Shown here in pieces: positions 6,213 through 59,547 of a stretch of 64,000 bases of DNA. Origin of the DNA: a virus; IMG/VR virus record IMGVR_UViG_3300042464_000422, one strand, 5' to 3'. Under the pieces are notes generated by a model. That model saw only the letters and a list, made by a program, of their open reading frames with translations. It was not told the origin of the DNA and searched no databases. Within the stretch, counting starts at the first letter, position 1, and every line of letters starts with the position of its first letter. A program made the translations under genes and the position numbers.

Positions 6213-7052
6213 ATGCTATCATATATCGGAGGTAAAAGTAAAATTGGAAAGTGGATTGTCCCTTTCTATGATAAAAATATGGAAACATATCTTGAAACAT
6301 TTGGAGGTATGTTTTGGTGTTTTTATAACATGGATTTAAAACAATTTCCCAATTTAAATAAAGTTGTGTATAACGACTTTAACCCACTCAACCACAATTT
6401 ATTTAAGTGTGTTCAAAACCCAACTGAATTATTAAGGTCAATCAACTCAATTGACTGTCAAAAATTTGGTAATGAGGTAACACCTGAAATATATCGTGAA
6501 CAATTTGTTTCTTTCCAAAGTGAGTTATTTAATGACGGATTCAAAATTGATGGAGTTGATTATGATGCTGCGGCTAAATATGTTTACGTGTTAACTCAGG
6601 TTTTTAGTGGGTCAAAACCAGAAACGTCAAAATTTATTGACTTAAAAGGAAAATATAAGTCAAAATACCTTACCTTTAGAGACAAGTTAATGAAACCTGA
6701 TTGGGTAGATCATTTCTTAAAGATTACAGATGTTGAAAACATGGATTTTGCGGATGTAATCAATAAGTACGACTCACCATCAACATACATTTACTTGGAC
6801 CCGCCTTATTGGAAAACTGAGAACTACTACTCCAACCACGACTTTGATCGTGACGATCATGAGCGTTTAGCAAATGTGTTAGATGAGGTTAAAGGTAAGT
6901 TTTCATTGTCTTACTATGACTTTGACTTACTTCGTGAATGGTTCCCTGAGGATAAATATACTTGGGTTAGAAAAGAGTTTGCAAAAGCGGCGGCAGCTAA
7001 GAAAGGGGAGAAACAAAATATGGGTGAAGAGTTACTTATAATGAATTACTAA
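6213..7052 (+). CDS. dam: DNA N6-adenine methyltransferase, D12 (Dam) class
   Basis: N-terminal YIGGKSK motif and catalytic DPPY (YLDPPYW). Confidence 0.8.
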   Translation: MLSYIGGKSKIGKWIVPFYDKNMETYLETFGGMFWCFYNMDLKQFPNLNKVVYNDFNPLNHNLFKCVQNPTELLRSINSIDCQKFGNEVTPEIYREQFVSFQSELFNDGFKIDGVDYDAAAKYVYVLTQVFSGSKPETSKFIDLKGKYKSKYLTFRDKLMKPDWVDHFLKITDVENMDFADVINKYDSPSTYIYLDPPYWKTENYYSNHDFDRDDHERLANVLDEVKGKFSLSYYDFDLLREWFPEDKYTWVRKEFAKAAAAKKGEKQNMGEELLIMNY

Positions 7053-31886: not shown

Positions 31887-33743
31887 ATGGGAAAAATAAT
31901 TGGAATTGACTTGGGAACAACTAACTCGTGTGTTGCCGTGATGGAAGGAAAGGAACCTGTAGTTATTACAAATAACGAAGGTAAACGAACAACGCCATCT
32001 GTAATCGGATTCATTAAAGATGGTGAAAGAAAGATTGGGGATCCGGCTAAACGACAAGCGGTAACCAATCCTGAAAAAACCGTACATTCAATTAAACGAT
32101 TTATGGGAACAAGTTTTACTGAATCTAAAAATGAGGTAAAGAAAGTTCCTTATAAAGTTGTAAAAGGAGATGGTGGATCACCAAGAGTGGATATTGATAA
32201 ACGACAGTATTCTCCGCAGGAACTTTCCGCAATGGTTTTACAAAAAATGAAACAAACTGCTGAGGATTATTTGGGTGAGACGGTTACTGAGGCGGTTATT
32301 ACGGTACCAGCGTATTTTAATGATGCTCAACGACAGGCAACCAAAGAAGCGGGTGAGATTGCGGGTTTGGAAGTAAAACGTATCATTAATGAGCCAACAG
32401 CGGCGGCATTAGCATATGGTTTAGATAAAATGTCTAAAGATATGGTAGTGGTTGTGTTTGACTGTGGTGGTGGTACACACGATGTTTCTATTCTTGAATT
32501 AGGTGATGGTGTATTTGAAGTATTGTCTACTGATGGTGATACTCACTTAGGTGGTGATGACTTTGATCAGGTTATTATTGAATGGTTAGCAAATGAATTC
32601 AAAGATGAGAATGGAATTGATGTGACCAAGGATCCGATGGCGTTACAACGTTTACGAGAAGCGGCAGAAAAGGCAAAAGTTGAATTATCTTCAACCTCAT
32701 CAACGGAAATTAATTTACCGTATTTGATGCCGGTAGATGGGATGCCAAAACACTTGGTTAGAACTTTATCAAAATCTAAATTTGAACAACTGGCAGATTC
32801 ATTAATCAAACGAACTATTGAACCTTGTAAGACAGCGTTGAAAAATGCTAAGATGGATGTGTCTGATGTTGATGAAATTATCTTGGTTGGAGGTACAACA
32901 AGAATTCCGGCAATTCAAGAAGCGGTTAAACAATTCTTTGGTAAGGAACCATCTAAAGGTGTTAATCCTGATGAGGTAGTTGCTTTAGGTGCGGCGATCC
33001 AAGGTGGTGTACTTGCTGGTGATGTTAAAGATGTCTTATTATTAGATGTGACTCCATTATCTTTAGGTATTGAAACTATGGGTGGAGTTATGACTAAATT
33101 GATTGATGCTAACACCACGATCCCAACTAAAAAATCTCAGGTGTTCTCAACGGCAGTAGATAATCAACCAACAGTTGAGATCCACGTACTTCAGGGAGAA
33201 CGAGCAATGGCAAAAGATAATAAAACCATTGGTAAGTTCAATTTAGATGGTGTTCCACCAGCGATGAGAGGTGTTCCACAAATTGAGGTTACGTTTGATA
33301 TTGATGCGAATGGTATTATCAATGTTTCTGCAATGGATAAAGGTACAAACAAACAACAAACAATTCGTATCGAAGCGTCCTCAGGTTTATCAAAAGAAGA
33401 GATTGAGAAAATGAAACAAGAAGCTGAGTTAAATGCCGAACAGGATAAAAAACTCAGAGAAGATGCTGAAGTTCTAAACACGGCTGATGGTACAATCTTC
33501 CAAACTGAGAAGTCAATCAAAGATTTGGAAGATAAATTAACTGAAGAACAAAAGAGTGAACTTGATGGATTACTTGGAACGTTAAAAGAATCTTACGCAA
33601 AAAAAGACATTGAGAAGATTAATCAAGATATTGAAAATCTTAATAGTCAGTTCCACCATATTAGTCAATCATTGTACGAACAAACTACAACTGAAGAAGG
33701 TAATGATGCTCCGTCTGACGTTGAATTTGAAGAAGTACTTTAA
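31887..33743 (+). CDS. dnaK: molecular chaperone DnaK (Hsp70)
   Basis: Collinear Hsp70 signatures: [36 protein letters not shown], the substrate-binding domain and a C-terminal lid. Confidence 0.95.
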
Positions 33744-41045: not shown

Positions 41046-41672
41046 ATGGAAAATTACGAAATACTTGAAAATGGTTTAATAAAACAAAAATCTATCGTTA
41101 ATAAGATCCAAACGTATGATACAAAATATGTGGATGAAAGATATAATCAATACGGTGAAAAAGGACCTCAAATGGCTGGTATTCGACTTGGATATTTAGT
41201 TGGGACTTTAGGTTACTGGCCACAATCCATACTAGATATTGGATATGGTAATGGTGATTTCTTAAAGGTCTGTAAAGGTGTTATTGAGTCATATGGTAAT
41301 GATGTTTCAGGATATCCTGTACCTGAAGGTGTTACATACACTGATAATATATTTGATAAACATTACGAGGTGATCTCATTCTTTGATGTATTGGAACATT
41401 TTGAGGAAATTGATTTCGTAAAAGATTTGGATTGTAATTACGTCTACATTAGTTTACCTTGGTGTCACAACTTTAGTGAAGAATGGTTTATGAATTGGAA
41501 ACACAGAAGACCTGATGAACATTTGTGGCATTTTAATGAAAAGTCAATTGAAAACTTCTTCAATGAAATGGGGTATGACATGGTTGATTATTCAAATGTT
41601 GAAGATTTAATAAGAGTTTCTGGTGAAGAATATCCTAACATTTTAACTTGTATCTTTAAGAAAAGAAAATAA
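41046..41672 (+). CDS. class I SAM-dependent methyltransferase-like
   Basis: ILDIGYGNGDF is a glycine-rich motif I, followed by an acidic motif II (VISFFDVLEH). Confidence 0.5.
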   Translation: MENYEILENGLIKQKSIVNKIQTYDTKYVDERYNQYGEKGPQMAGIRLGYLVGTLGYWPQSILDIGYGNGDFLKVCKGVIESYGNDVSGYPVPEGVTYTDNIFDKHYEVISFFDVLEHFEEIDFVKDLDCNYVYISLPWCHNFSEEWFMNWKHRRPDEHLWHFNEKSIENFFNEMGYDMVDYSNVEDLIRVSGEEYPNILTCIFKKRK

Positions 41673-42589
41673 TGGGAGAATTTGGAATAAAAGTTTCTGA
41701 GACATTTGGAGATACGATATATATGACACCTGTAATTGCTTACATGAGCAGGTGTCATAATAAAAAGTTTCATGTTGAGACAATGTTTCCTGATCTATTC
41801 AAAAACAATCCTTATGTGGAAAAAGTATATAACACCAAAAATGGTGAATTTTTTCCTGAAGATATAATCGTTTATGAAGCGAAACGAATATTTGAAGGGG
41901 ATATGTTTAGGCAAAGAAAAATGCATTCAATTGACTTTTATTCAAGTAATCTTGGATTTATTTTAGCGCCTGAAGAAAAAACTTTATTATATTATCCTGA
42001 TGAATTGGATATGGAGTTACCTGAAGGAAGATATGTTGTTATAAATCCTTCCGTTACAACTACTTGTCGTACATGGGATAAAGAGAAATGGGAAACATTA
42101 ATAGATATGATCATCAGTACGGGTACAAAAGTTGTTGTTGTTGGTAAAGAAATAAATTACGACCATGAATTTAACAGAGGTGTTATGCGTGTTGGTGGTG
42201 ATAAAGTTATTGATCTAATCAATAAATTAAATACCTCACAGTTATGGCATATAATTGAGAATAGTTTAGTGATATTTACGATGAACGCAGGATTATGGCC
42301 GTTCGCAGGTACAACAGATGCCAACATAATTGCAATGGGAAGTACAATTAATCCTTATTATCGGGCACCATACAGACATGGTAGACAAGATTATAAACAT
42401 TATTTTGTTGGGGGTGAATGTAAAATATTTTGTCATACTGACATGAAGTATAATTCAAGTGGGGATATTAAAGTTACTGGAGGTTTTCCAATAGCAAAAT
42501 GTTTTGAAAATAAACCAACTTATGAGTGCCATCCAACGCCAGAAAATGTATTTAAAACATTTTTAAATTTACTTGAAAATAAAAATTAA
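41672..42589 (+). CDS. GT9-like glycosyltransferase (heptosyltransferase family), copy 1
   Basis: N-terminal FGDTIYMTPVI..., RYVVINPSVTTTCRTWDKEKWETLIDMI...KVVVVG resembles the GT9 pattern (GD..P., IvlnPgas...K.W., .vvl.G). Confidence 0.55.
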   Translation: MGEFGIKVSETFGDTIYMTPVIAYMSRCHNKKFHVETMFPDLFKNNPYVEKVYNTKNGEFFPEDIIVYEAKRIFEGDMFRQRKMHSIDFYSSNLGFILAPEEKTLLYYPDELDMELPEGRYVVINPSVTTTCRTWDKEKWETLIDMIISTGTKVVVVGKEINYDHEFNRGVMRVGGDKVIDLINKLNTSQLWHIIENSLVIFTMNAGLWPFAGTTDANIIAMGSTINPYYRAPYRHGRQDYKHYFVGGECKIFCHTDMKYNSSGDIKVTGGFPIAKCFENKPTYECHPTPENVFKTFLNLLENKN

Positions 42590-42591
42590 TA

Positions 42592-43515
42592 ATGAGATAC
42601 GGATTTAAAATAGAAGGTTGTTTTGGTGATGTGTTATATTCAACACCTGTGTTAAGATATTTGAGTGTGTGTCATAATGATAAGATAGATGTTGAAACTA
42701 ATTTCCCAATTATCTTTAAGAACAACCCATATGTTGGTAAAATATATGACACTAACCAAAATGAATTTTTACCTGGTGGTCAAGAATTTTATGATTGTAA
42801 TGGTCATAATTTTGAGGATGTTCAAAAACAAATTAGAAAAATGCATCTCACCGATTATTGGTCAACTCATTTGGGTTTTATTTTAACGCCAGAAGAAAAA
42901 ACAATTAATTTTTATCCGGATCCAATTGACATTGACTTACCTGAAGGTGATTACATTGTAATAAGTCCGTCAAAAACTTGGGAATGTAGAACGTGGGACA
43001 AAGAAAAATGGGAAAAGTTAACTGAAATGATTTTAAAGTTAGGGATAAAAGTTGTTGTTACTGGTAAAGATATAAGTTATGGTGATGATATAAAAAGCTC
43101 TATAGAAATTGACAATCCTAATGTGATAAATTTGATAAATAAATTAAATTTGTCTCAGTTATGGCATTTGGTTAATAATAGTTTGGTTACCATAACTATG
43201 AATGCTGGTTTATTACCTTTTGCTGGGACTACAGATGTAAATATTTTGGAATTAGGGGGAGCAATTAATCCGGCATATAGATCCCCATTTAGGAATGGAT
43301 CGCAGGAATATAAACACAAATTTGTTGGGGGTTCTTGTAAATTATTTTGTCAGTCAGATATGAAATATAATGTGATTGGAGATCAAAAAATTACAAGATG
43401 GAATAGTTTTGCAGCACCGGCTTGTTATGAAAAAAAACCAACATATGAATGTCACACATCAGTTAATGCTGCTTTTAATGGGGTTTTAGAGTTTTTAAAA
43501 ATGAAAAATAAATGA
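42592..43515 (+). CDS. GT9-like glycosyltransferase, tandem paralog (copy 2)
   Basis: Collinear similarity to 41672..42589 along the whole length (FGD.LY.TPV..., PEG.Y.VI.PS.T..CRTWDKEKWE.L..MI...G.KVVV.GK, ...KYN..GD.K.T). Confidence 0.55.
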   Translation: MRYGFKIEGCFGDVLYSTPVLRYLSVCHNDKIDVETNFPIIFKNNPYVGKIYDTNQNEFLPGGQEFYDCNGHNFEDVQKQIRKMHLTDYWSTHLGFILTPEEKTINFYPDPIDIDLPEGDYIVISPSKTWECRTWDKEKWEKLTEMILKLGIKVVVTGKDISYGDDIKSSIEIDNPNVINLINKLNLSQLWHLVNNSLVTITMNAGLLPFAGTTDVNILELGGAINPAYRSPFRNGSQEYKHKFVGGSCKLFCQSDMKYNVIGDQKITRWNSFAAPACYEKKPTYECHTSVNAAFNGVLEFLKMKNK

Positions 43516-47460: not shown

Positions 47461-48183
47461 ATGGATTACGGAAAAGAGTTTAGAAGTTTTGCAAAGAGCA
47501 AAGGAATTAATTCACTGGTATTAGATCAGTTTGAAAATGGTTTAACACCATACATTTTGGAAGAACGAGAAATGAGAGCAACGCAAATGGATATTTTCTC
47601 CAGATTGATGCGTGATCGTATCTTATGGGTATCAGGACCTGTTAATCAATATATGTCTGATATTGTTCAGGCTCAATTATTGTTTCTTGATTCTGTTGAG
47701 AAAAAAGATATCACATTATACATTAATTCACCTGGTGGATCTGTGTTATGTGGGTTAGGAATTGTTGATCTTATGAACTTTGTAAATTCAGATGTGGCGA
47801 CAACAAACATTGGGATGTGTGCATCAATGGGATCGGTATTATTATCTGCGGGAGCAAAAGGAAAACGATCATCTTTGATTTATTCAAAAGTAATGACACA
47901 CCAAGTGAGTCATGGTACGCAAGGTAATGTTCAGGATACACGTATTAATCAAATGGAAGCGGAGAAGTACAATTATGTATTATTCAAAATGATTGCTGAA
48001 AATTGCGGTAAATCTTTTGAAGAAGTGTTGGAGTTTTCAAGACGAGATCGTTGGTACAATTCTGATGAAGCATTGGCATTCGGTTTAGTTGATGAAGTTA
48101 TTGGAGCGGATAAAAATAAATCTATAACACAAATGTTAGAAGGATTTGATGATTACTACCAAAAAGAAGTAATGACTAAATGA
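47461..48183 (+). CDS. clpP: ClpP-family serine protease
   Basis: TTNIGMCASMGSVLLSAGAKGKR (active-site Ser context) and MTHQ (His) are collinear with ClpP. INSPGG near the N-terminus. Confidence 0.8.
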   Translation: MDYGKEFRSFAKSKGINSLVLDQFENGLTPYILEEREMRATQMDIFSRLMRDRILWVSGPVNQYMSDIVQAQLLFLDSVEKKDITLYINSPGGSVLCGLGIVDLMNFVNSDVATTNIGMCASMGSVLLSAGAKGKRSSLIYSKVMTHQVSHGTQGNVQDTRINQMEAEKYNYVLFKMIAENCGKSFEEVLEFSRRDRWYNSDEALAFGLVDEVIGADKNKSITQMLEGFDDYYQKEVMTK

Positions 48184-48815: not shown

Positions 48816-50726
48816 ATGTCTAAATTATTAAAAGTATTATTTACTTTATTTTTATTATCTCCGTTATTTGTGTTTTCACAAGTTCCTGCAGCACCATCTA
48901 ATGGTTTATGGGGAATTATTGCATCACAATATCAAGTCGGAACAACGGCTCAAGGAACTACTACAGCCAAAATTACATTACAAAATACGACCCTTACAAA
49001 ATTTGCGGGGGTCCAATTCAGGGTCTTCTACGATAAAGTTGCCTTTACAAACGCAACTGTATCGTTGATAGGTTCAACAACTAACTTAGATCTTCAATCT
49101 ATAACCAAGACTGCAAATGGTTATATAACTGTTACTTTAAGTTATACAGGTCCAAGTGCAACGTACACAATTGCAAATGGTGAAAGATTTTTAATCACTT
49201 TTACTCACGCACCTGCCGCTACGTTCAACAACTTAGCTTCCATCAGTAACTTAACATGGACAGGGGTTCAAACATTCACACCATATGCGGCAAAACAAGA
49301 TGGTATGGACACTACGTTAAGTGTTCATAACTACGGTGGTGTATTCACTCCTGTAAACTTTGCTTACAACGGAACATTTACAAACGTAACTGGTACGGCA
49401 GCAAAAACATTACACTTGGCTTTGGAAAGAAGACCATTCGGTGGGAATACTTGGACACAACACTCCACATATGTTACAGATAACAACGGCGCCTTTGCTA
49501 TTTCAGTTCCTTTAGATACTACTTATTGGGATGTGCGTTTAGCGGTTAAAGGAGACACTATGGGAGTTGGAAACATTATCTCATCAACAGATGCTCAGTT
49601 AATCAATCAATGGGTATTGGGTAACGGTAATATGACAGGATTTGACTACTATACTGCAGATGTTAATGGTTCAAACAACACAACTATCTCTGATGTATGG
49701 GGTGTGTTTGGTAGAGTATCGGGTAGATTTACACAATGGCCTAACAACATAGAAGATGTTAAATTCTTCACGGCTTCTGAATACACAACAATCAACGGTT
49801 CAGCAACCAACTACACGTCAACTATCGCAGGTGTAACTAACTTCACATTTGAAATTTTACCGGGTCAACCATCCTCTGTAACATATTATGTAATGGTACC
49901 GGGTGATGCGAATGGAACAGGTTATAACATGGCTCGTGTAACTCCAATTGAAGTATTGGTTGGACCAGCACCTGGATTACAAAATCAAATCTATAATGTT
50001 ATTGACACAAAAGTAGAATATGATTTTCCAACACAATCTATTGAAGTAAATGTACCAAACATTTCAGTACAAGCAGGTAACTTAGTTGAACTTCCTGTGA
50101 CTCTTAAAACTAATGGTATTGAATTAAGTTCATTACAATTTGGTTTAAAATATGATGATACCTTATTACAATTTAAAGGTGTTATTTCATCTGCGGGAGC
50201 AATGAAATGGTTGACATACATTAACCCTAATGATAGTGAAGTTGATTGGGGTGGTTTTGATCCTACAAATAACACTAATACATTAAAAGATGGTGATCAA
50301 GTAGTTACATTACAATTCATAGCGTTACAGCCACAAAATTTATGGGAAGCAAGTCCTTTATATACCACAAGAAAATTTGCCGGAAATACATACTCAAGTG
50401 ATTTAACATTGACTCCGACAAATGGAATTCTTCAAGTATTAAAAATGGAAGGTGGTGAAATATTAAGTGGTAATAATATGGAGGTATATCCTAACCCATA
50501 TCAAGATGAAGTTACAATCACATTTAAAGTTGAAGAAACAACAAATGCTACATTATCTGTGTATGATTTGGTTGGTAGAAAATTAGTTACAATCTTAGAT
50601 ACACAAATACCTGATGGAATTTATAACTACACTAAAAATTTAGGGGAATTAAAACCTGGTGTATATATAGTGAAACTTTCTGTTGAAAATGGAACACCAT
50701 CATTTGAGAGAATAGTAAAACAATAA
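48816..50726 (+). CDS. secreted protein with a signal peptide and a C-terminal T9SS (Por) sorting domain
   Basis: N-terminal MSKLLKVLFTLFLLSPLFVFSQ. C-terminal ...MEVYPNPYQDEVTITFKV...LSVYDLVGRKLV...GVYIVKLSVENGTPSFERIVKQ matches the T9SS type-A CTD pattern. Confidence 0.75.
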   Translation: MSKLLKVLFTLFLLSPLFVFSQVPAAPSNGLWGIIASQYQVGTTAQGTTTAKITLQNTTLTKFAGVQFRVFYDKVAFTNATVSLIGSTTNLDLQSITKTANGYITVTLSYTGPSATYTIANGERFLITFTHAPAATFNNLASISNLTWTGVQTFTPYAAKQDGMDTTLSVHNYGGVFTPVNFAYNGTFTNVTGTAAKTLHLALERRPFGGNTWTQHSTYVTDNNGAFAISVPLDTTYWDVRLAVKGDTMGVGNIISSTDAQLINQWVLGNGNMTGFDYYTADVNGSNNTTISDVWGVFGRVSGRFTQWPNNIEDVKFFTASEYTTINGSATNYTSTIAGVTNFTFEILPGQPSSVTYYVMVPGDANGTGYNMARVTPIEVLVGPAPGLQNQIYNVIDTKVEYDFPTQSIEVNVPNISVQAGNLVELPVTLKTNGIELSSLQFGLKYDDTLLQFKGVISSAGAMKWLTYINPNDSEVDWGGFDPTNNTNTLKDGDQVVTLQFIALQPQNLWEASPLYTTRKFAGNTYSSDLTLTPTNGILQVLKMEGGEILSGNNMEVYPNPYQDEVTITFKVEETTNATLSVYDLVGRKLVTILDTQIPDGIYNYTKNLGELKPGVYIVKLSVENGTPSFERIVKQ

Positions 50727-50744
50727 ACAAATAAAATAACAAAA

Positions 50745-51083
50745 ATGTCAGAAGAACAAACACAAGAAACGAACGACGGAACTTGGTCAGGATTGAAAAA
50801 AACAATCATTGGAACATTAACAACTGTAATTGCTGGTGGTGGAGTATGGGTTAGTACGTTAATATTTGGTGGGGGAGATGAACCTGCTGAAGAAACAAAA
50901 ACAGAACAACCTGCAAGTCAACCTGTAATTAATCTTAATGTACAGCAAAATCAAGAAAATAAACAAAAAACTGAGAACAATAACGGTGGTGGTGTAGTTC
51001 GTGAGAGAATTATCGAAAGACCGGCACAACAACCGCAAGCACAACCTGAAAAACCAAAAAAGGTTGAGGAAGAATCTTGGTAA
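50745..51083 (+). CDS. single-TM protein with a disordered Q/P/E-rich tail
   Basis: TM segment GTLTTVIAGGGVWVSTLIFGG, then low complexity. Confidence 0.45.
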   Translation: MSEEQTQETNDGTWSGLKKTIIGTLTTVIAGGGVWVSTLIFGGGDEPAEETKTEQPASQPVINLNVQQNQENKQKTENNNGGGVVRERIIERPAQQPQAQPEKPKKVEEESW

Positions 51084-51100
51084 TAAACAATTAAAATAAA

Positions 51101-51463
51101 ATGAAAAAAATGTCATTCTTAAAAAATTTATTAAACAGTGGATCAAATGAGTTTACGAAAGTAGAAAACTCACAACGTTTTAACTTTATGTTACAACAAA
51201 TGCAATCAAACAGATGGAAGATCACACTTATCATCTTATTAACATTTTTCTTTATCATCTTCGGTATTGTGTTATCGGTTATGTTTAAAGCATCGATCCA
51301 AGAATCTTGGAAAGAATTGTTATTGTTACTTTTAGGTGCATTCGTTGGTAACTTAAACAAAGTAATTGACTATTGGTTCTCTAATGAGGATAGAGATAAA
51401 ATGTTAGTTCAAAAAATGGACGAGGAAGATAACTCATCTGAATCTGATGTAACAGAAATCTAA
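51101..51463 (+). CDS. small membrane protein
   Basis: TM segments ITLIILLTFFFIIFGIVLSVMF and LLLLLLGAFVG. Confidence 0.45.
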   Translation: MKKMSFLKNLLNSGSNEFTKVENSQRFNFMLQQMQSNRWKITLIILLTFFFIIFGIVLSVMFKASIQESWKELLLLLLGAFVGNLNKVIDYWFSNEDRDKMLVQKMDEEDNSSESDVTEI

Positions 51464-51464
51464 T

Positions 51465-52208
51465 ATGAAAAGAATAGTATTCATACTTTCAATATTCACA
51501 TTATTTAGTTGTAAAACTTTACAAGCCCAGCCCCCACAAAACAGTGGGGGTATTGGTTCTGTAAAAACTGAACAATATCAAGCTGAATTTGAAAAGAAAC
51601 AATCAATTACAGATGTTGCCGAATACACTGATACAATACAAGTTCCTATCCAATTGTTAAAGATTGGTATTAACGAAGAATTGTATGAGTTATATCCTGA
51701 ACTTAAAGACAAACGAGTTGGTTTGGGGGTAACAAACATTGTAATTGAGTATTTGGAGTATACGGGTAGATTTGTATTTACCGAAGAAAAGGAGGACATC
51801 AAACAACGAATGATTGCTCAGGACAAAGCATCTGACAAAGGAATTTCGGTTAATAAAATTGATGTGAAAGGAAATGTAATTTTAGCAAAATATTTTGTGT
51901 ATATTGAGGTTTATGACTTTAGTGTTTCGGAAGATGAAGTGGTAAAAGTTAATGGGCAGCAGACAACAACACAAACAACAAGATTAGGATTACAAATTAA
52001 ATTTGTAGATGCTGAGACAAGTCAAGTGATCGTTGGATCTGGATTAGGTGAGGCAAGTACAGTAAAAACCTCAACTATCTTGGGGGACATCTCAGACGAT
52101 GTTAAATTCAACCAATCAACAATTGGTATAACAACAAAGAAGGCGTTGGAAACCGCATCTTCAAGGGTAGTGACACGACTTATTACAAAAGGTGTCTTTA
52201 AAAATTGA
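51465..52208 (+). CDS. CsgG-like lipoprotein (lipobox LFSC)
   Basis: Lipobox MKRIVFILSIFTLFSC. LGVTNIVIEYLEYTGRFVFTEEKEDIKQRM resembles the CsgG-family signature (..TDMLITAL..SGRF.VLER..L). Confidence 0.45.
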   Translation: MKRIVFILSIFTLFSCKTLQAQPPQNSGGIGSVKTEQYQAEFEKKQSITDVAEYTDTIQVPIQLLKIGINEELYELYPELKDKRVGLGVTNIVIEYLEYTGRFVFTEEKEDIKQRMIAQDKASDKGISVNKIDVKGNVILAKYFVYIEVYDFSVSEDEVVKVNGQQTTTQTTRLGLQIKFVDAETSQVIVGSGLGEASTVKTSTILGDISDDVKFNQSTIGITTKKALETASSRVVTRLITKGVFKN

Positions 52209-53800
52209 GATTAAATGTATTCATACTATTGTTCTTTTGCGTGTTTGGGTTCCTAAACCTGAACGCGCAAACTTACAATTATAGTTACTCTGATCCCTGT
52301 ACAGGGAATGTTAAAACGATAGTAGTACCAATTAATGGAAACGTAACAGTTTCGTACTACGGATCAATCGGGTCGTTTAGTCAAAACGATTTTACAAACG
52401 GAACATTTGATGCTTGGACTAATAACATATTTTCACAATATGGTACGAATAGTCCTTGCTCTGAAATAGTGGGGTTAGGGACTGCGGTTAATGTGACTCA
52501 AGGTACTGCCTTAAATGTCATTGGAATTCTTAATTCACTCTCATCAATTTCTGATTTAGCTGGCGGATCTACCAATTTAATAGGTGGATCTGTAACTACC
52601 ATTAATAATACGGGTGGGAATAATAATTCTAAAAATAACAAAGGAGGGAATAATTCCCAAAATGGAAGTGGTAATAATACAACAAATACTAATAACACCA
52701 CAACCAATAATAATCAAAATCAAACAAATGGAACAGGTAACACTAATGAAGGAAGTACAACCACTTCTGGAACAAATGAAACAAGTTCAAACGGAGGAAA
52801 TGGAACCCCTAATCAAAATGTTGGAACTCAAAATCCAACACAAGCAGGAGGAACTACAACTCAAGGTGGATCAAATGAAAATGGAAATACATCGTCTAAC
52901 ACGACTGTAAATGGTGAAACATCTGAAACACCAATAAATAATCAAACAACAACTGAAAATGGAAATAATGGTAGCAATCCTAGTGTCCCTAATAATGGGA
53001 GTAATGGTGGTAATGGGGGTAATGGGTCTGGTTCAGGAAATAATCAGACGGAAGAAGGTAATACGACAACTGAAGGAACGGAAGAAGGTGGACAAACAAA
53101 TATAACGGGTGGAGCAACCACAACGGTTAAAGCGTCCCCAACAAGTAAGGAAGGTGGGAAACCTACTATCGTTGCAAGTGGTGATTTTGTTGGTTTTAAC
53201 TTTAGGAATTCTGAGGTTAACACAGGTTTAAAGGTTACAGGTGGTTACACCGCAATGAGATGGGATGGTAAAAGAAGTTCAGGTATTTTGGGGGATTACA
53301 CATCCGCTCTTAGAGGTCCCAATATAACTGCTTTCTATGCCTTTATTAGATCTAAATCAATTGTGATAGGGTCAGGTACTTTAACTATTGGATTTGAGGG
53401 GAATAAATCATTATATGGTACAATAGCGGTAGGTCAAATGTTTTCATTTAAAAAACCTAAATCACTTAAACTATTATATATGGGTACGGTATCTTATGGT
53501 CAAGTATATAGAGAATCTTTTTTAGGTACCGCATTAATTGCGGGAGCAACTTATGATTTGAAGATCGGAAAACGATTAGATATTAAATTAATGAACTTAC
53601 TGGTTTACGCACCTTATGTTAGTTATTATAATGATGTTGTATTAAAATCACCTTATGTAATGTTACCAAGTATTGGGACAAACATAAAATTAACTAAAAA
53701 GTTTAAATTTAACATAAACGCCGGTGGTGCTTGGGATTTGAAAACAAGTGCTTTAAATTATACAGTAACGTGTGGAGCAAGAATGTTAGTAGGACAGTAA
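52205..53800 (+). CDS. secreted N/G/T/S-rich low-complexity protein with a C-terminal beta-barrel-like domain (TTG start)
   Basis: Signal peptide MRLNVFILLFFCVFGFLNLNAQ, about 250 aa of N/G/T-rich low complexity, and a C-terminus with alternating hydrophobic beta-strand periodicity. Confidence 0.55.
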   Translation: MRLNVFILLFFCVFGFLNLNAQTYNYSYSDPCTGNVKTIVVPINGNVTVSYYGSIGSFSQNDFTNGTFDAWTNNIFSQYGTNSPCSEIVGLGTAVNVTQGTALNVIGILNSLSSISDLAGGSTNLIGGSVTTINNTGGNNNSKNNKGGNNSQNGSGNNTTNTNNTTTNNNQNQTNGTGNTNEGSTTTSGTNETSSNGGNGTPNQNVGTQNPTQAGGTTTQGGSNENGNTSSNTTVNGETSETPINNQTTTENGNNGSNPSVPNNGSNGGNGGNGSGSGNNQTEEGNTTTEGTEEGGQTNITGGATTTVKASPTSKEGGKPTIVASGDFVGFNFRNSEVNTGLKVTGGYTAMRWDGKRSSGILGDYTSALRGPNITAFYAFIRSKSIVIGSGTLTIGFEGNKSLYGTIAVGQMFSFKKPKSLKLLYMGTVSYGQVYRESFLGTALIAGATYDLKIGKRLDIKLMNLLVYAPYVSYYNDVVLKSPYVMLPSIGTNIKLTKKFKFNINAGGAWDLKTSALNYTVTCGARMLVGQ

Positions 53801-55458
53801 TAACAATAACGTTATTATTATTTTCATTTAATGGAATGTCTCAGAATTTTACATATTCGGGATACATTTATAATGCGGATGGAACAGGTGCGGTTAATGT
53901 ACCTGTTAAGTTATATAAAAGAACTACACCTACATTGGCGGGGTTTACGTCTCAAACAAATTACAACGGACATTCATATTATCGTTCAACAGGATCAATG
54001 ACTTGGACAAGTGCAAAAACTGCTTGTGAAAATATGGGTGGACATTTGGCAACAGTTTCAAACGCCGCTGAAAATAACTTTTTATTTAATACTTGGCCAT
54101 CGGGTTGGATTGGATATTACCAAGATAGAGTTGCGGGATATACTTACTCCGAACCATTGGGTGGATATAGATGGACAGAAACTAAGGTCACAAGTGGTTT
54201 AGGTGCTGACTATGATGTCTCATCTTATACATCAAGCCCAACTTTAGTTGATATTAAATCATCGGTAAACGCGACATTATATAATTCCCCTATCTACTCA
54301 AGTACGGGAGGCAAATATTTAACATTCAATGGATCTAATCAATATGCAATAACTAATAATTTGGCATCACAATTTTCTTCAACTGCAATATCGGTAGTTG
54401 CTTGGGTTTACCCAACAGGAAATGGTGTGATTGCATCTGAATTAAATGTTCCAAGTACATCATCGGGTTGGCACGAATCAATTATGGAAATTACAGGGTC
54501 AAATACTTTACGAGTAGGATTTTGGAATGGTATAGGTATTACACAATTAAGTACACCAATTACATTAAACACATGGAATATGGTTTGTCTTACTTATGAT
54601 GGAACGACAATGAGAGGTTATTTAAATAACGTAAGTTTTGGAAGTGTAAACTTTTCTCGTCAAGCTGCATTTATTCATGGAGGAAATGGACAACAACATT
54701 TTGCATTTGGGTTGAGTGATGCAACCAATATGGGTTCAGGTGCGTTCGGGTCATTTAGATTAGGTGTCATCCAATTCTTTGACCGAGCAATTACCGTAGA
54801 TGAAATTGATAGAACATTTAATTTATATGCTTATAGATACAGAACAAATCAATATGCTAATTGGAATCCAGGTGAACCAAATAACTCAAGTAATGAAGAT
54901 TATACACAATTTGTTGGTGGTGGTATGTGGAATGATTTGGCGAACTCATCTTTACCTTATGTTATAGAATTTGATTATATTAACGACTTTACACCTTGGG
55001 TACTACACCAAACGGTTTATACTAATTCATCCGGTTATTATAGTTTTTCACAACCAACAAACCCAGCAACAGAATGGTACATACAATACGATGCAATGAC
55101 ACCAGTAACTACATTACAAGTAACGGATATGGTTGAAGTTTCTAAATTGGTTTTGGGAACAACTGCAATTAAAAGTATTCACTATCATAGATATGATGTT
55201 AATTATGATGGTAAAATAAATGTGGCTGATGAAAATTATATTAATCTAAGACGTTATGGTTTTAAATTAGGATGGATTACAATGACACCTTCTAGATTAT
55301 TCACACCTATCCAATATACAACATTAACAACAAATACATCAGACATGAGAATATCAATTCCTGGTGTATCATCTATAACAATAAACTCACCTGTAAGTGG
55401 GGGATCACAAAACTACTATCTGATTGCTCCTGGGTATAAAACAACCGTAAATTATTAA
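53731..55458 (+). CDS. secreted C-type-lectin / LamG-like / dockerin-like multidomain protein (start may be GTG 53770)
   Basis: Two C-type-lectin-like segments (WTSAKTACENMGGHLATV...; NWNPGEPNN...WNDL), a ConA-like segment (LTFNGSNQYAITNN...), and a dockerin/EF-hand-like YDVNYDGKINVADE. Signal peptide ...LLLFSFNGMSQ. Confidence 0.6.
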   Translation: MGFENKCFKLYSNVWSKNVSRTVITITLLLFSFNGMSQNFTYSGYIYNADGTGAVNVPVKLYKRTTPTLAGFTSQTNYNGHSYYRSTGSMTWTSAKTACENMGGHLATVSNAAENNFLFNTWPSGWIGYYQDRVAGYTYSEPLGGYRWTETKVTSGLGADYDVSSYTSSPTLVDIKSSVNATLYNSPIYSSTGGKYLTFNGSNQYAITNNLASQFSSTAISVVAWVYPTGNGVIASELNVPSTSSGWHESIMEITGSNTLRVGFWNGIGITQLSTPITLNTWNMVCLTYDGTTMRGYLNNVSFGSVNFSRQAAFIHGGNGQQHFAFGLSDATNMGSGAFGSFRLGVIQFFDRAITVDEIDRTFNLYAYRYRTNQYANWNPGEPNNSSNEDYTQFVGGGMWNDLANSSLPYVIEFDYINDFTPWVLHQTVYTNSSGYYSFSQPTNPATEWYIQYDAMTPVTTLQVTDMVEVSKLVLGTTAIKSIHYHRYDVNYDGKINVADENYINLRRYGFKLGWITMTPSRLFTPIQYTTLTTNTSDMRISIPGVSSITINSPVSGGSQNYYLIAPGYKTTVNY

Positions 55459-55459
55459 A

Positions 55460-56047
55460 ATGAAAAATTTATTACTAACGTTATTATTAACATTACCATT
55501 ATTCGTATTCAGTCAGAAAACATTAAGAGATTCAATTTACATCAAAACTGATATGTTTGAGATTGTTTATTCTGAAAAATTACAACAACCTAAATTCATA
55601 CGTTATAGCGTTCCATGTCCTAATGGGACTGCTTCAAGAAAAGGGATGGATTTTTATGTTTGTGATTCAATCCTTACTTCAGATAATAAGGATTATGAAA
55701 ATAATCCATACGACAAAGGTCATTTAGCTCCAGCGGCAAACTTTAGTTGTACAAAAGATATGATGTATAGGACTTTTACGTATTTGAATTGTTCTTTACA
55801 GCAAGAAAATCTTAATAGAACTACGTGGAGATTATTAGAAGCGAGAGAAAGAGAATTAGCAAAGACACAGACGGTAACGGTTGAAATCCGATGCGTATTT
55901 ACGTCTAAATCAATTGTTTTACCTTCAGGTGCTACAATTCCTGATGGATATTATAAAACAATAAAATATGGTAAAACAATGGAAAGATATTACTTTAAGA
56001 ATGAGAAACCATTATCAACCGATTATACAAAATACAAAATAAAATGA
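55460..56047 (+). CDS. secreted DNA/RNA non-specific endonuclease (Serratia-nuclease family)
   Basis: Signal peptide ...LFVFSQ; active-site-like DKGHLAPAANF corresponds to the family's DRGH motif. Confidence 0.65.
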   Translation: MKNLLLTLLLTLPLFVFSQKTLRDSIYIKTDMFEIVYSEKLQQPKFIRYSVPCPNGTASRKGMDFYVCDSILTSDNKDYENNPYDKGHLAPAANFSCTKDMMYRTFTYLNCSLQQENLNRTTWRLLEARERELAKTQTVTVEIRCVFTSKSIVLPSGATIPDGYYKTIKYGKTMERYYFKNEKPLSTDYTKYKIK

Positions 56048-56493
56048 AAAAATTATTATTTACCTTGATTATGCTATTTCCGTTTTTTATTTTTTCACAA
56101 GAGTGTGTTAAAGTTGATACGGTATTTGTAACGGCAAAACTAAGAGAACTTGGATCAAGAGACATTAGATTTGGAATAAAACAAATAGTGGAAGAAGAAC
56201 TTTCTCAAAAGTTTTGTTTATCAGATGATGGTGAACCAATTAAAGTTGAGGTGTTTTACTTTGGACTTCCAAAAACAACAATAAGAGTTGCTGGAGTTGA
56301 AAAAACTAATACAATAACACAGGTTGGTGTACGTTTACATTATAAAGGAGTTAAGTATGAAGGTATTGGTGAGTCAGATACTGAAATCAGAGCAATTATG
56401 ATTGAAGTTCAAGAAGGATCCATACCGTTTGAAAAAATGACAGTATCGTCATCATTAAAAAAAGCGATACACGAAGCGGCAATTAAATTATGA
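56044..56493 (+). CDS. secreted hypothetical protein
   Basis: Signal peptide MKKLLFTLIMLFPFFIFSQ with an ATGA overlap. Confidence 0.5.
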   Translation: MKKLLFTLIMLFPFFIFSQECVKVDTVFVTAKLRELGSRDIRFGIKQIVEEELSQKFCLSDDGEPIKVEVFYFGLPKTTIRVAGVEKTNTITQVGVRLHYKGVKYEGIGESDTEIRAIMIEVQEGSIPFEKMTVSSSLKKAIHEAAIKL

Positions 56494-56945
56494 AAAAATT
56501 ATTATCAGTTTTATTATTTTTATTTATTTCAATACATTCATTTGGGCAATTAAAAATCACTGATGTAGGTGATGGGTGGAAAAATAAAGTTGATAGTGCG
56601 TTAAAGATAATTCAAACGTATGATATTGAAAAATATAATGTAATCCTTGAAACTTGTACTCTTATTGGATATTGGAATGAATCCTTCTCAACTACTGAGG
56701 GGGATTCTGTCATTTTAATATCTACCAAAGACATTAATAATGAGAGTATAAATAATATTGCCGCAATATTAGTCCATGAATCCATGCATCTGTTTATCAA
56801 ACAGTTATATGCTAAAATTAATCCAAATAGAGAAGAAACTATTTGTTATGTGTATGAATTAAATTTCCTATACAAAGTCCCAAATGTTGAACCTTGGTTG
56901 ATTGAAAATGCCACGAGTAAAATAAAATATTATTCAAAAGGGTAG
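56490..56945 (+). CDS. secreted HExxH protein (putative zinc metallopeptidase)
   Basis: Signal peptide ...IHSFGQ and AAILVHESMHLF (HExxH). Confidence 0.45.
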   Translation: MKKLLSVLLFLFISIHSFGQLKITDVGDGWKNKVDSALKIIQTYDIEKYNVILETCTLIGYWNESFSTTEGDSVILISTKDINNESINNIAAILVHESMHLFIKQLYAKINPNREETICYVYELNFLYKVPNVEPWLIENATSKIKYYSKG

Positions 56946-58357: not shown

Positions 58358-59050
58358 ATGAAAATAAGTATAATATCTGACACACACAACAAACACAAGT
58401 TTGTACATCATGATTTACCTGGTGGTGATTTGTTATTACACGCAGGTGACATAAGTTCTATGGGTTATGAACACGAGATACGTGAGTTTGCTGCTTGGTA
58501 TGATAAGATTGTTACTTATGGTCATAAAGTATTCATTGCTGGTAATCACGATTGGGGGTTCCAAAACAATGAAGAAAAAATAAAAGGATTGTTAACGGGA
58601 TATAAAACTATTGAGTATATCCAAGACGAATTAATAACCATACAAGATGGTGATGGACCTGAAGTTAAGATTTGGGGTAGTCCTTGGCAACCTGAGTTCT
58701 ACAATTGGGCATTTAACTTACCACGAAATGGTGAGGAGTTAAAGGCGGTTTGGGATATGATACCTGAAGGTATTGACATCTTAATCACTCATGGGCCTGC
58801 TTGGGGTTTCTTAGATGATGTTGAAGGTCGTAGAGGACAACACTTAGGTTGTGAGTTACTTGCGGAACGTATTAAACAAATTAAACCTAAGATTCATATT
58901 TGTGGTCATATTCACTCAGGTCACGGACACTATTATGACGGACATACACACTACTTCAATGCATCTGTGTTGAACGAACGATACCTTTATTCACATACAC
59001 CATGGAATATTGATTGGGATCCAATAACTAATGAAATTAAATTTTTATAA
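58358..59050 (+). CDS. calcineurin-like metallophosphoesterase
   Basis: ISDTHN (DxH), HAGDIS (GD), AGNHD, ITHGP, CGHIHSGHGH. Confidence 0.8.
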   Translation: MKISIISDTHNKHKFVHHDLPGGDLLLHAGDISSMGYEHEIREFAAWYDKIVTYGHKVFIAGNHDWGFQNNEEKIKGLLTGYKTIEYIQDELITIQDGDGPEVKIWGSPWQPEFYNWAFNLPRNGEELKAVWDMIPEGIDILITHGPAWGFLDDVEGRRGQHLGCELLAERIKQIKPKIHICGHIHSGHGHYYDGHTHYFNASVLNERYLYSHTPWNIDWDPITNEIKFL

Positions 59051-59547
59051 TGGAAAAGGCACATTTTATTGAGAACAGAATTTTTAGAGATAAAAGAGGA
59101 ACATTTAGTCCTTTAGATCTGGCTAAACTTGATAAAAATTGGGTCCAAAGTAATATTAGTACAAATCCCCAAAAATTTACACTCAGAGGATTACATTTTC
59201 AAAAGAATGAATACGCTCAAGCCAAGTTAATTAAAGTCATCTCAGGTAAGATATTGGACTTTGTGGTTGATATGAGGACCGTATCGGAAGATTATAATAA
59301 AGTATTCTTCTTTGAAATGAATGAGGGTGATGAGGTATATGTACCACGATACTTTGCTCATGGATTTATCACACTTGAAAAAGATACTGTGGTTCAATAT
59401 TTGGTTGATAATGATTATAGTCCTGAGAACGAAGGTGTGGTAGTTTGGTTATCTTATCCTGAAATTGAGAGACAAATAAAGAAGTTAGATACAACTTTTG
59501 ATAATGATAAGATCATTATTGAAAACAAAGATTTGATAGAAAAATAA
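59050..59547 (+). CDS. dTDP-4-dehydrorhamnose 3,5-epimerase-like cupin (RmlC-like)
   Basis: The pattern ENRIFRDKRGTF...LRGLHFQ...AQAKLIKVISGKILDFVVDMR fits RmlC-family epimerases. Confidence 0.65.
   Translation: MEKAHFIENRIFRDKRGTFSPLDLAKLDKNWVQSNISTNPQKFTLRGLHFQKNEYAQAKLIKVISGKILDFVVDMRTVSEDYNKVFFFEMNEGDEVYVPRYFAHGFITLEKDTVVQYLVDNDYSPENEGVVVWLSYPEIERQIKKLDTTFDNDKIIIENKDLIEK

Follow-up and report, generated by a model that had tools for sequence, protein, structure and literature searches.

A CsgG-related lipoprotein and a stalked, putative outer-membrane barrel encoded as a pair by large phages of Bacteroidota

Some outer-membrane (OM) barrels are served by a partner at their periplasmic face, as PelB is by PelC and LptD by LptE. 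Relatives of another OM protein, the curli channel CsgG (PF03783; E. coli structures 4Q79, 3X2R, 6LQH), are carried by phages: the pelagimyophages (HTVC008M) and the OM43 phage Melnitz possess csgG and csgF without curlin genes, and an envelope or lysis role has been speculated for the phage csgG (PMC9004378). Here we analysed a CsgG-like lipoprotein gene and the overlapping gene of a 531-aa protein at positions 51,465–53,800 of IMG/VR virus record IMGVR_UViG_3300042464_000422, a stretch of 64,000 nucleotides with ~30% GC and nearly all genes on the plus strand, referred to below as the window. What is new is a separate CsgG lineage with polar hairpins in phages of Bacteroidota, its obligate pairing with a stalked barrel that is predicted to have 12 strands and belongs to no annotated family, and the conservation of the island that surrounds the two. 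Homology, fold, synteny and composition were computed, and from them we infer topology, protein–protein contact and physiological role; the structural assignments come from models of modest confidence.

Like the pelagimyophages and Melnitz, the phages described here are large, aquatic and myovirus-type, and carry a CsgG-family gene while curlin genes are absent. They differ in the partner, which is csgF there and a stalked barrel with an N-domain unrelated to CsgF here, and in the hosts, which are Proteobacteria there and Bacteroidota here. The pair is a second, independent phage CsgG-like lineage with another partner, and it bears on the question of why phages carry relatives of the curli channel without curlin; two further additions are a polar-hairpin CsgG subfamily and a family of minimal barrels, predicted to have 12 strands, that lacks annotation. 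Among other comparable systems, FapF, the functional-amyloid OM channel of Pseudomonas, shows no sequence similarity and no fap operon genes are present, and the host-conversion or exclusion proteins lambda Lom and Bor, T5 Llp and TraT-like proteins belong to other families with other barrel strand numbers.

The lipoprotein and its relation to CsgG

The earlier note on this DNA, made from the sequence alone, described a CsgG-like lipoprotein immediately upstream of an N/G/T-rich protein with a beta-strand C-terminus, and both open reading frames (ORFs) were confirmed on the plus strand. The lipoprotein begins with MKRIVFILSIFTLFSC, in which LFSC forms the lipobox with Cys16; a Cys near the N-terminus is present in 73 of 86 homologues and lacking in 13, including gp017 of the cultured Flavobacterium phage vB_FspM_immuto (immuto below). 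Direct scans of both proteins of the pair against Pfam, PHROGs, NCBIfam and PADLOC yielded nothing useful; the window lipoprotein and immuto gp017 had no Pfam match at E 0.1 (PF03783 included) and no NCBIfam match, neither the single sequence (phmmer) nor a shallow profile of 25 sequences matched CsgG in the PDB, and hhalign with the shallow profile aligned the signal peptide only. A few of the homologues carry the JGI label CsgG. A search of 1.84 billion representative proteins with the lipoprotein profile returned no more than 265 relatives at E 1e-3; where full-length, these are mostly lipoproteins of ~230 aa. The link to CsgG became visible only after the remote relatives from this search had joined the profile. 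Of 33 of these remote relatives compared with Pfam, 15 matched CsgG (PF03783; best E 1.9e-17) and 9 matched LpoB. With the extended profile, E. coli CsgG was the top PDB sequence match (E 1e-3), and hhalign aligned the two over their full length (226 columns, 92.6% probability, E 4.5e-7). The PF03783 matches among the remote relatives and this alignment support homology of the window lipoprotein to CsgG at the superfamily level, not direct membership of PF03783. Fusion of a CsgG-like domain to a barrel was considered for the longer relatives P0403, P0412 and P0419 and rejected, as these join a CsgG-like domain to a caspase.

The AlphaFold2 (AF2) model of the lipoprotein (mean predicted local distance difference test score (pLDDT) 56, core ~70–77) predicts a beta-alpha-beta-alpha core, long hairpins and a C-terminal helix, and the alpha/beta core with C-terminal helix is that of the CsgG fold. 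The TGRF...E motif that had first suggested CsgG is real: in the profile alignment T100-G-R-F-V-F-T-E-E108 faces S-R-W-F-I-P-L-E-R of CsgG, and the two proteins share this S/T-x-R/W-F...E pattern after helix 1 in addition to the lipobox, two inserts and a Y-P dipeptide. The latter, the invariant Y77-P78, pairs in hhalign with Y51-P52 of the CsgG constriction loop, whereas CsgG N55 and F56 are not conserved and align with K81 and with a gap or D82. The phage orthologues, some of them not lipidated, further differ from CsgG in being encoded by Flavobacteriia phages, with a mean identity of 84%.

The earlier note found the pair reminiscent of a secretion channel with a surface-fibre or amyloid-like substrate. 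In such a curli-type (type VIII-like) arrangement the lipoprotein would oligomerise into an OM pore and export an unfolded N/G/T-rich chain, the stalk of its neighbour or another protein, which would form a surface fibre or amyloid. The full-length homology and the invariant constriction-loop Tyr-Pro speak for it, as do inserts of 20 and 23 aa that come near the length of the CsgG hairpins TM1 and TM2 (~23 and ~25 aa, counted by eye) and a stalk that is N/Q/G-rich and unfolded like the chains CsgG passes; phage csgG without csgA/B is also known (PMC9004378). The character of the hairpins, however, is against it. In CsgG, TM1 and TM2 are amphipathic transmembrane (TM) hairpins of a 36-strand barrel, with a mean hydropathy per face of +0.82/−1.09 and 3 aromatics in TM1 and of +0.97/−1.20 and 4 aromatics in TM2. 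The corresponding values are −1.39/−0.32 and 0 aromatics for insert 1 of the phage lipoprotein and 0.18/−0.45 and 1 aromatic for insert 2; no hydrophobic face is apparent in these sequences, and the polar, charged character is common to the wider lipoprotein family. Because the hairpins are polar and acidic, they would not cross lipid, and in sequence the lipoprotein does not resemble a membrane channel. The curli-type arrangement is also contradicted by the loss of N55 and F56 and by the 13 homologues that are not lipoproteins, and its other components were not found: CsgF, CsgE and curlin (CsgA/B) had no Pfam match in nine neighbouring proteins.

The 531-aa partner: N-domain, stalk and predicted barrel

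The lipoprotein ATG begins 1 nt past the stop of the upstream gene, and the TTG start of the 531-aa protein overlaps the lipoprotein TGA stop as TTGA. Homologues of the 531-aa protein have ATG starts and begin MKLNV... at the position matching this TTG, which favours the overlapping upstream TTG as the start. An identical public protein of 523 aa (P0121) was called at an internal TTG 8 codons further down (52205–52228), where translation would truncate the signal peptide.

The signal peptide noticed earlier is present and ends with LNLNA, followed by QT; an N-terminal Gln after signal cleavage is the usual pattern in Bacteroidetes according to passages of a published study (PMC5837995). In the N-domain that follows, residues 23–80 were modelled with pLDDT 57–83, and two cysteines, in DPC and SPC (C32 and C85), are invariant and 53 residues apart; such widely spaced invariant cysteines argue for folding in the periplasm. 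Eight N-domains compared with Pfam gave noise only and no match. Identity of the N-domain with CsgF, for which the earlier note had suggested a check, was rejected, since profile alignment with E. coli CsgF gave a probability of 0.45%.

Between the N-domain and the C-domain lies the stalk, for which ~250 aa of N/G/T/S/Q low complexity had been claimed. The composition holds, and the figure agrees with the AF2 low-confidence stretch of residues 83–317 (~235 aa), but the strictly low-complexity part is shorter, at 184 aa (N 47, T 40, G 38, S 18, E 12, Q 10; N/T/G/S/Q 83%). Among orthologues the stalk varies in length from 78 to 399 aa and in N+Q content from 9 to 37%, and its composition shifts from a prevalence of N/T/G to one of S/G and, in P0296 and P0298, of E/G. 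Curlin-type repeats were not found in it at the protein level, the DNA holding just an 18-bp x3 and a 9-bp x3.8 tandem repeat. Judged by this drift in length and composition, the stalk behaves as a spacer, not as a curlin. The lack of curlin repeats and the compositional drift count against export of the stalk by the lipoprotein, as does the covalent link between the proposed substrate and its own membrane barrel. Taken with the polar hairpins and the missing CsgF, CsgE and curlin, they lead us to conclude that the pair is not a curli or amyloid system; a curli-type channel with its substrate is improbable here.

The C-domain (213 aa) is rich in G, Y, T, S and hydrophobic residues. In the AF2 model of the 531-aa protein (mean pLDDT 46 overall, 55–74 in the C-domain), residues 321–530 form 12 long antiparallel strands joined by short turns, alternating hydrophobicity is clear in the final strands, and the C-termini of barrel proteins in the immuto clade (GGKLTF, KIRF or KILL) resemble an OM protein C-terminus. 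The C-domain is, on this modelling, a 12-stranded OM barrel. The even-numbered turns, which would be periplasmic by the usual topology, are short and basic (DGK, RSK, FKKPKS, GKR, LTKK), with a net charge of +2 to +10 and a median of +7 across 77 orthologues. Thus a CsgG-family match is at hand for the lipoprotein, and the C-terminus of its partner, with 12 predicted strands, is modelled as a barrel and not as globular. At the level of sequence families the 531-aa protein had no match in Pfam (PF11751 and related OM barrel models included), NCBIfam or PHROG, and a C-domain family profile found nothing relevant among PDB sequences.

The closest barrel matches are autotransporters, aligning over 244–250 residues, and raise the alternative of self-display, in which the barrel, with BAM, would thread its own stalk and N-domain outward in the manner of type Va secretion, assisted in the periplasm by the CsgG-like protein; the surface of the infected cell would then be altered by the domain on display. 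The layout of signal peptide, passenger, linker and C-terminal 12-stranded barrel (here predicted) is that of type Va proteins, the aligned length exceeds the 213-aa barrel, and a disordered stalk rich in glycine and polar residues could pass a narrow pore; moreover, OM barrels of phages, including proteins with an autotransporter beta-domain, are common in BFVD, and the neighbouring genes encode surface proteins (type IX secretion system (T9SS) cargo, lectins). On the other side, six diverse C-domains had no match to PF03797 (Autotransporter) even at E 10, and where type Va translocators (NalP, EstA, AaaA, Hbp, AIDA-I) have a pore-filling helix adjoining the barrel, the preceding segment is disordered here, the sole helix (99–119, low confidence) lying ~200 residues upstream. 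The passenger is tiny, a two-cysteine domain of ~100 aa on the 184-aa disordered stalk and not a beta-helix, and the barrel has minimal loops. Disulfides that form in the periplasm generally prevent export by the type Va route, and the two invariant cysteines are therefore a further difficulty. We regard self-display as unlikely.

Occurrence of the pair and its possible role

An ORF with the N-domain/linker/C-domain layout lies downstream of the lipoprotein gene in all 77 related viral loci with at least 1.5 kb of downstream sequence, abutting it in 63 and following after an insert of ~360 nt in 14. With the barrel ORF downstream in every one of these loci, the pairing is not due to chance. 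The lipoprotein is encoded at 229 loci in IMG/VR, on contigs of up to 291 kb, and metagenomic homologue clusters at E 1e-3 number 4,107 for the lipoprotein (90% clustering) and 1,137 for the barrel protein; the pair and its phages are thus common in aquatic metagenomes. In immuto (160 kb; host Flavobacterium sp. LMO8) the pair is gp017/gp018, both deposited as 'hypothetical protein'; gp017 is 64.5% identical to the window lipoprotein, and the adjoining gp018 shows 25% identity over the C-domain and shares the three-part architecture. With this phage and its host, a culture for direct tests exists. The supposition that a phage-borne pair of this kind would be new goes too far, as phage csgG/csgF have been published, phage barrels abound in BFVD and the pair itself was already present, unannotated, in immuto.

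A tblastn search of 50,697 phage records with the lipoprotein (E 1e-3) matched immuto phages only, which sets the CsgG-like genes of Bacteroidota phages apart as a separate lineage; megablast of the region against phage records gave no match. When one genome per species from 185,579 prokaryotic species was scanned with the C-domain, two contigs of metagenome-assembled genomes (MAGs) were found, both with this phage-type module. Given the occurrence in IMG/VR and immuto and just these two MAG loci, the gene pair is essentially phage-restricted, and the phage nature of the window is supported by PHROG matches, by immuto, by the IMG/VR relatives and by the restriction to two MAG loci. The phages that carry the module are large (~160–290 kb), have Flavobacteriia hosts and are related to Immutovirus. 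One MAG contig (L007; CBFHJJ010000001.1, 248 kb), deposited as 'Flavobacteriaceae bacterium', carries the phage module amid short same-strand ORFs and may be a jumbo phage that was assigned to a bacterial bin. The module-bearing IMG/VR contigs L011, L052, L059, L062, L063 and L065 measure 270–292 kb, against 160 kb for immuto.

Across 76 loci, identity to the window averages 83% for the lipoprotein and 60% for the N- and C-domains of the barrel protein; in the bin of 70–80% lipoprotein identity, the N-domain averages 47% and the C-domain 46%. The lipoprotein thus evolves about twofold more slowly than the barrel protein and is unusually constrained for an accessory phage gene. Its gene ranks among the most conserved in the module, which suggests that the lipoprotein has a conserved target in the host or is essential during infection.

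As to what the pair does, a complex that the phage installs in the OM, consisting of a barrel-anchored tether and a CsgG-like periplasmic partner, is the reading we prefer, and to us an even call. The host Sec pathway would export both proteins during infection, together with the 112-aa bitopic inner-membrane protein of the same island, and the overlapping genes suggest that the three are co-produced. The 531-aa protein would sit in the OM as a small 12-stranded barrel whose outer loops are very short and whose periplasmic turns are basic; its N-domain, able to form a disulfide, would be carried on a flexible G/S/T/N-rich stalk of ~180 aa, with stalk and N-domain in the periplasm. The CsgG-family protein, lipidated or not, would retain the core fold along with the Y-P loop and a pair of long hairpins that do not span lipid, and would lie at the periplasmic face of the OM as an oligomeric partner, funnel or plug of a barrel, by analogy with PelC–PelB and LptE–LptD. 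In these a lipoprotein of the same fold class is likewise encoded with a barrel and acts at its periplasmic face or inside it, and here the acidic hairpins (median net charge −3, against +7 for the barrel turns in the 77 orthologues) and the basic turns make charge complementarity possible. No sequence relationship to them was detected, however, and a plug-in-barrel arrangement is doubtful, since PelB has 16 and LptD 26 strands against the 12 predicted here. The conserved ...ESW C-terminus of the bitopic protein could span the periplasm to reach the other two. The likeliest purpose would be to remodel or guard the envelope of the infected cell, for example by blocking superinfection or masking receptors.

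Several observations weigh against this complex. AF2 confidence is low (means of 56 and 46, cores ~55–77) and the alignments are shallow. The 13 of 86 homologues without a lipobox Cys mean that OM anchoring of the lipoprotein is not universal. Its slow evolution would fit a conserved host target no less well than it would fit binding to a fast-evolving barrel. Finally, as the autotransporter matches extend over 244–250 residues, beyond the barrel alone, surface display of the N-terminal part is possible.

The surrounding island and the rest of the window

The pair lies in an island of conserved order: a cohesin/T9SS C-terminal domain (CTD) protein, the bitopic ...ESW protein, an optional two-TM protein, the CsgG-like protein, the stalked barrel protein, a C-type lectin (LamG/dockerin), an optional non-specific nuclease and two small secreted proteins. 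Seven of nine consecutive genes in 48816–56945 encode signal peptides, the remaining two (at 50745 and 51101) being membrane proteins (Table 1).

Table 1. Features of the gene pair and of the island around it (window coordinates)
Feature	Position	Strand	Basis or remark
CsgG-like lipoprotein gene	51465-52208	+	247 aa; remote CsgG-family member
Lipoprotein signal peptide with lipobox LFSC (Cys16)	51465-51512	+	Sequence
Loop YPELKDKRVGLG, residues 77-88	51693-51728	+	Invariant alignment columns; hhalign to CsgG constriction loop
TGRFVFTEE motif, residues 100-108	51762-51788	+	Aligns with CsgG DSRWFIPLE (profile alignment)
Hairpin insert 1 SVSEDEVVKVNGQQTTTQTT, residues 153-172	51921-51980	+	At CsgG TM1 position, polar; AF2 strands 143-162 and 165-182
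Hairpin insert 2 TVKTSTILGDISDDVKFNQSTIG, residues 199-221	52059-52127	+	At CsgG TM2 position, polar/acidic; low pLDDT there
Stalked barrel protein gene	52205-53800	+	531 aa, secreted; signal peptide, N-domain, disordered stalk, 12-stranded barrel (predicted)
N-terminal region, residues 22-120	52268-52564	+	Mature Gln first; four strands, two helices, C32/C85, then helix 99-119 (predicted)
Low-complexity disordered stalk, residues 135-318	52607-53158	+	Composition; pLDDT 20-30
C-terminal 12-stranded beta-barrel domain (predicted), residues 319-531	53159-53797	+	Short basic periplasmic turns
Cohesin and T9SS type A C-terminal sorting domain protein	48816-50726	+	636 aa, secreted; first island gene; Pfam, NCBIfam
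Bitopic inner-membrane protein	50745-51083	+	112 aa; cytoplasmic stub, TM helix TIIGTLTTVIAGGGVWVSTLIFGG, low-complexity periplasmic part, C-terminus KPKKVEEESW
Two-TM (predicted) protein with very acidic tail	51101-51463	+	120 aa; variable insertion between bitopic and lipoprotein genes, outside the conserved core
C-type lectin / LamG / weak dockerin (E 0.009) protein	53731-55458	+	Pfam; true start probably later than the listed TTG
DNA/RNA non-specific endonuclease (PF01223, E 3.8e-19)	55460-56047	+	Signal peptide MKNLLLTLLLTLPLFVFSQ
Second, shortened CsgG-like paralogue	56044-56493	+	149 aa, secreted, without helix-2 region; hhalign against CsgG-like family profile
Small signal-peptide protein with HExxH motif (VHESMH)	56490-56945	+	Sequence

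Orthologues of the bitopic protein, which is the module's conserved upstream member, occur in L001, which is immuto (6684–6995), L002 (9681–10007) and L007 (6342–6599), where they end in ESW (immuto gp016), ESW and ISW, respectively, and in 31 related loci E/D/I-SW forms the C-terminus of the ORF that immediately precedes the lipoprotein gene; as a sequence, this terminal (E/D/I)SW motif looks like a docking peptide. The 120-aa two-TM protein, which had only weak matches of the 4TM-effector type, is missing at this position in immuto and L002 but occurs in a subset of loci, in which the upstream ORF ends in TEI, VEG or TEV.

These upstream genes also bear on a lysis or envelope-breach device, in which the bitopic protein and the lipoprotein/barrel pair, joined as in a spanin bridge or acting as a gated pore, would set the time of lysis or complete it. 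A type II inner-membrane protein followed by an OM lipoprotein from overlapping genes recalls separated spanins, a holin-like two-TM protein with a charged tail lies between them in some phages, the window included, and a role in lysis timing has been proposed for the CsgG of phage Melnitz (PMC9004378). Two-component spanins, however, pair a coiled-coil i-spanin with a small o-spanin beside holin and endolysin genes, which is not what was found. The bitopic protein has a low-complexity periplasmic part in place of a coiled coil. O-spanins are small, unlike the 230-aa folded domain of the lipoprotein, and some lipoprotein homologues lack a lipid anchor. No endolysin was found beside the module in the subset of neighbouring ORFs scanned, and the genes nearby encode secreted lectins, a nuclease and proteins of nucleotide metabolism. 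We regard a lysis device as very unlikely.

A bolder version would unite the bitopic protein, a CsgG-like ring and the stalked barrel in a hitherto undescribed, phage-restricted trans-envelope machine of Bacteroidota, a gated OM conduit of a new kind. The CsgG-like hairpins would then form a soluble vestibule under the barrel, the tethered N-domain and its helix would act as a ball-and-chain plug, and the conduit would serve to export the nuclease, lectin or protease encoded alongside it, or to set when the envelope is breached. This we consider quite unlikely.

Several other island genes recur in place. A 637-aa Por_Secre_tail protein occupies the first position in L002–L004, where immuto has the cohesin-domain protein gp015; a Lectin_C protein holds the lectin position in L002–L004, and the immuto lectin gp013 lies nearby. 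The cohesin/T9SS protein and the lectin/dockerin protein may constitute a phage cohesin–dockerin surface assembly exported via the host type IX system. The paralogue at 56044–56493 aligned with the CsgG-like family profile over 116 columns in hhalign (probability 86%, E 5e-6); L002–L004 have genes of 147 and 149 aa after the lectin gene, whose likeness to it is one of size only.

Elsewhere on the plus strand, the intervals 41046–43515, 47461–48183 and 59050–59547 hold a methyltransferase, two GT9 heptosyltransferase-like genes, a ClpP-family protease and a homologue of RmlC (dTDP-4-dehydrorhamnose epimerase). The GT9-like, RmlC and companion genes suggest that the phage alters host lipopolysaccharide or surface sugars, and the common theme is protein export to the host envelope and its modification. 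Phage-type genes of the window include an RNA ligase, a thymidylate synthase and a strong match to phrog_22485; the latter, a 618-aa protein at 31887–33743 (plus strand), matches this family over nearly its full length (E 2e-253) and contains a weak partition-protein-like segment.

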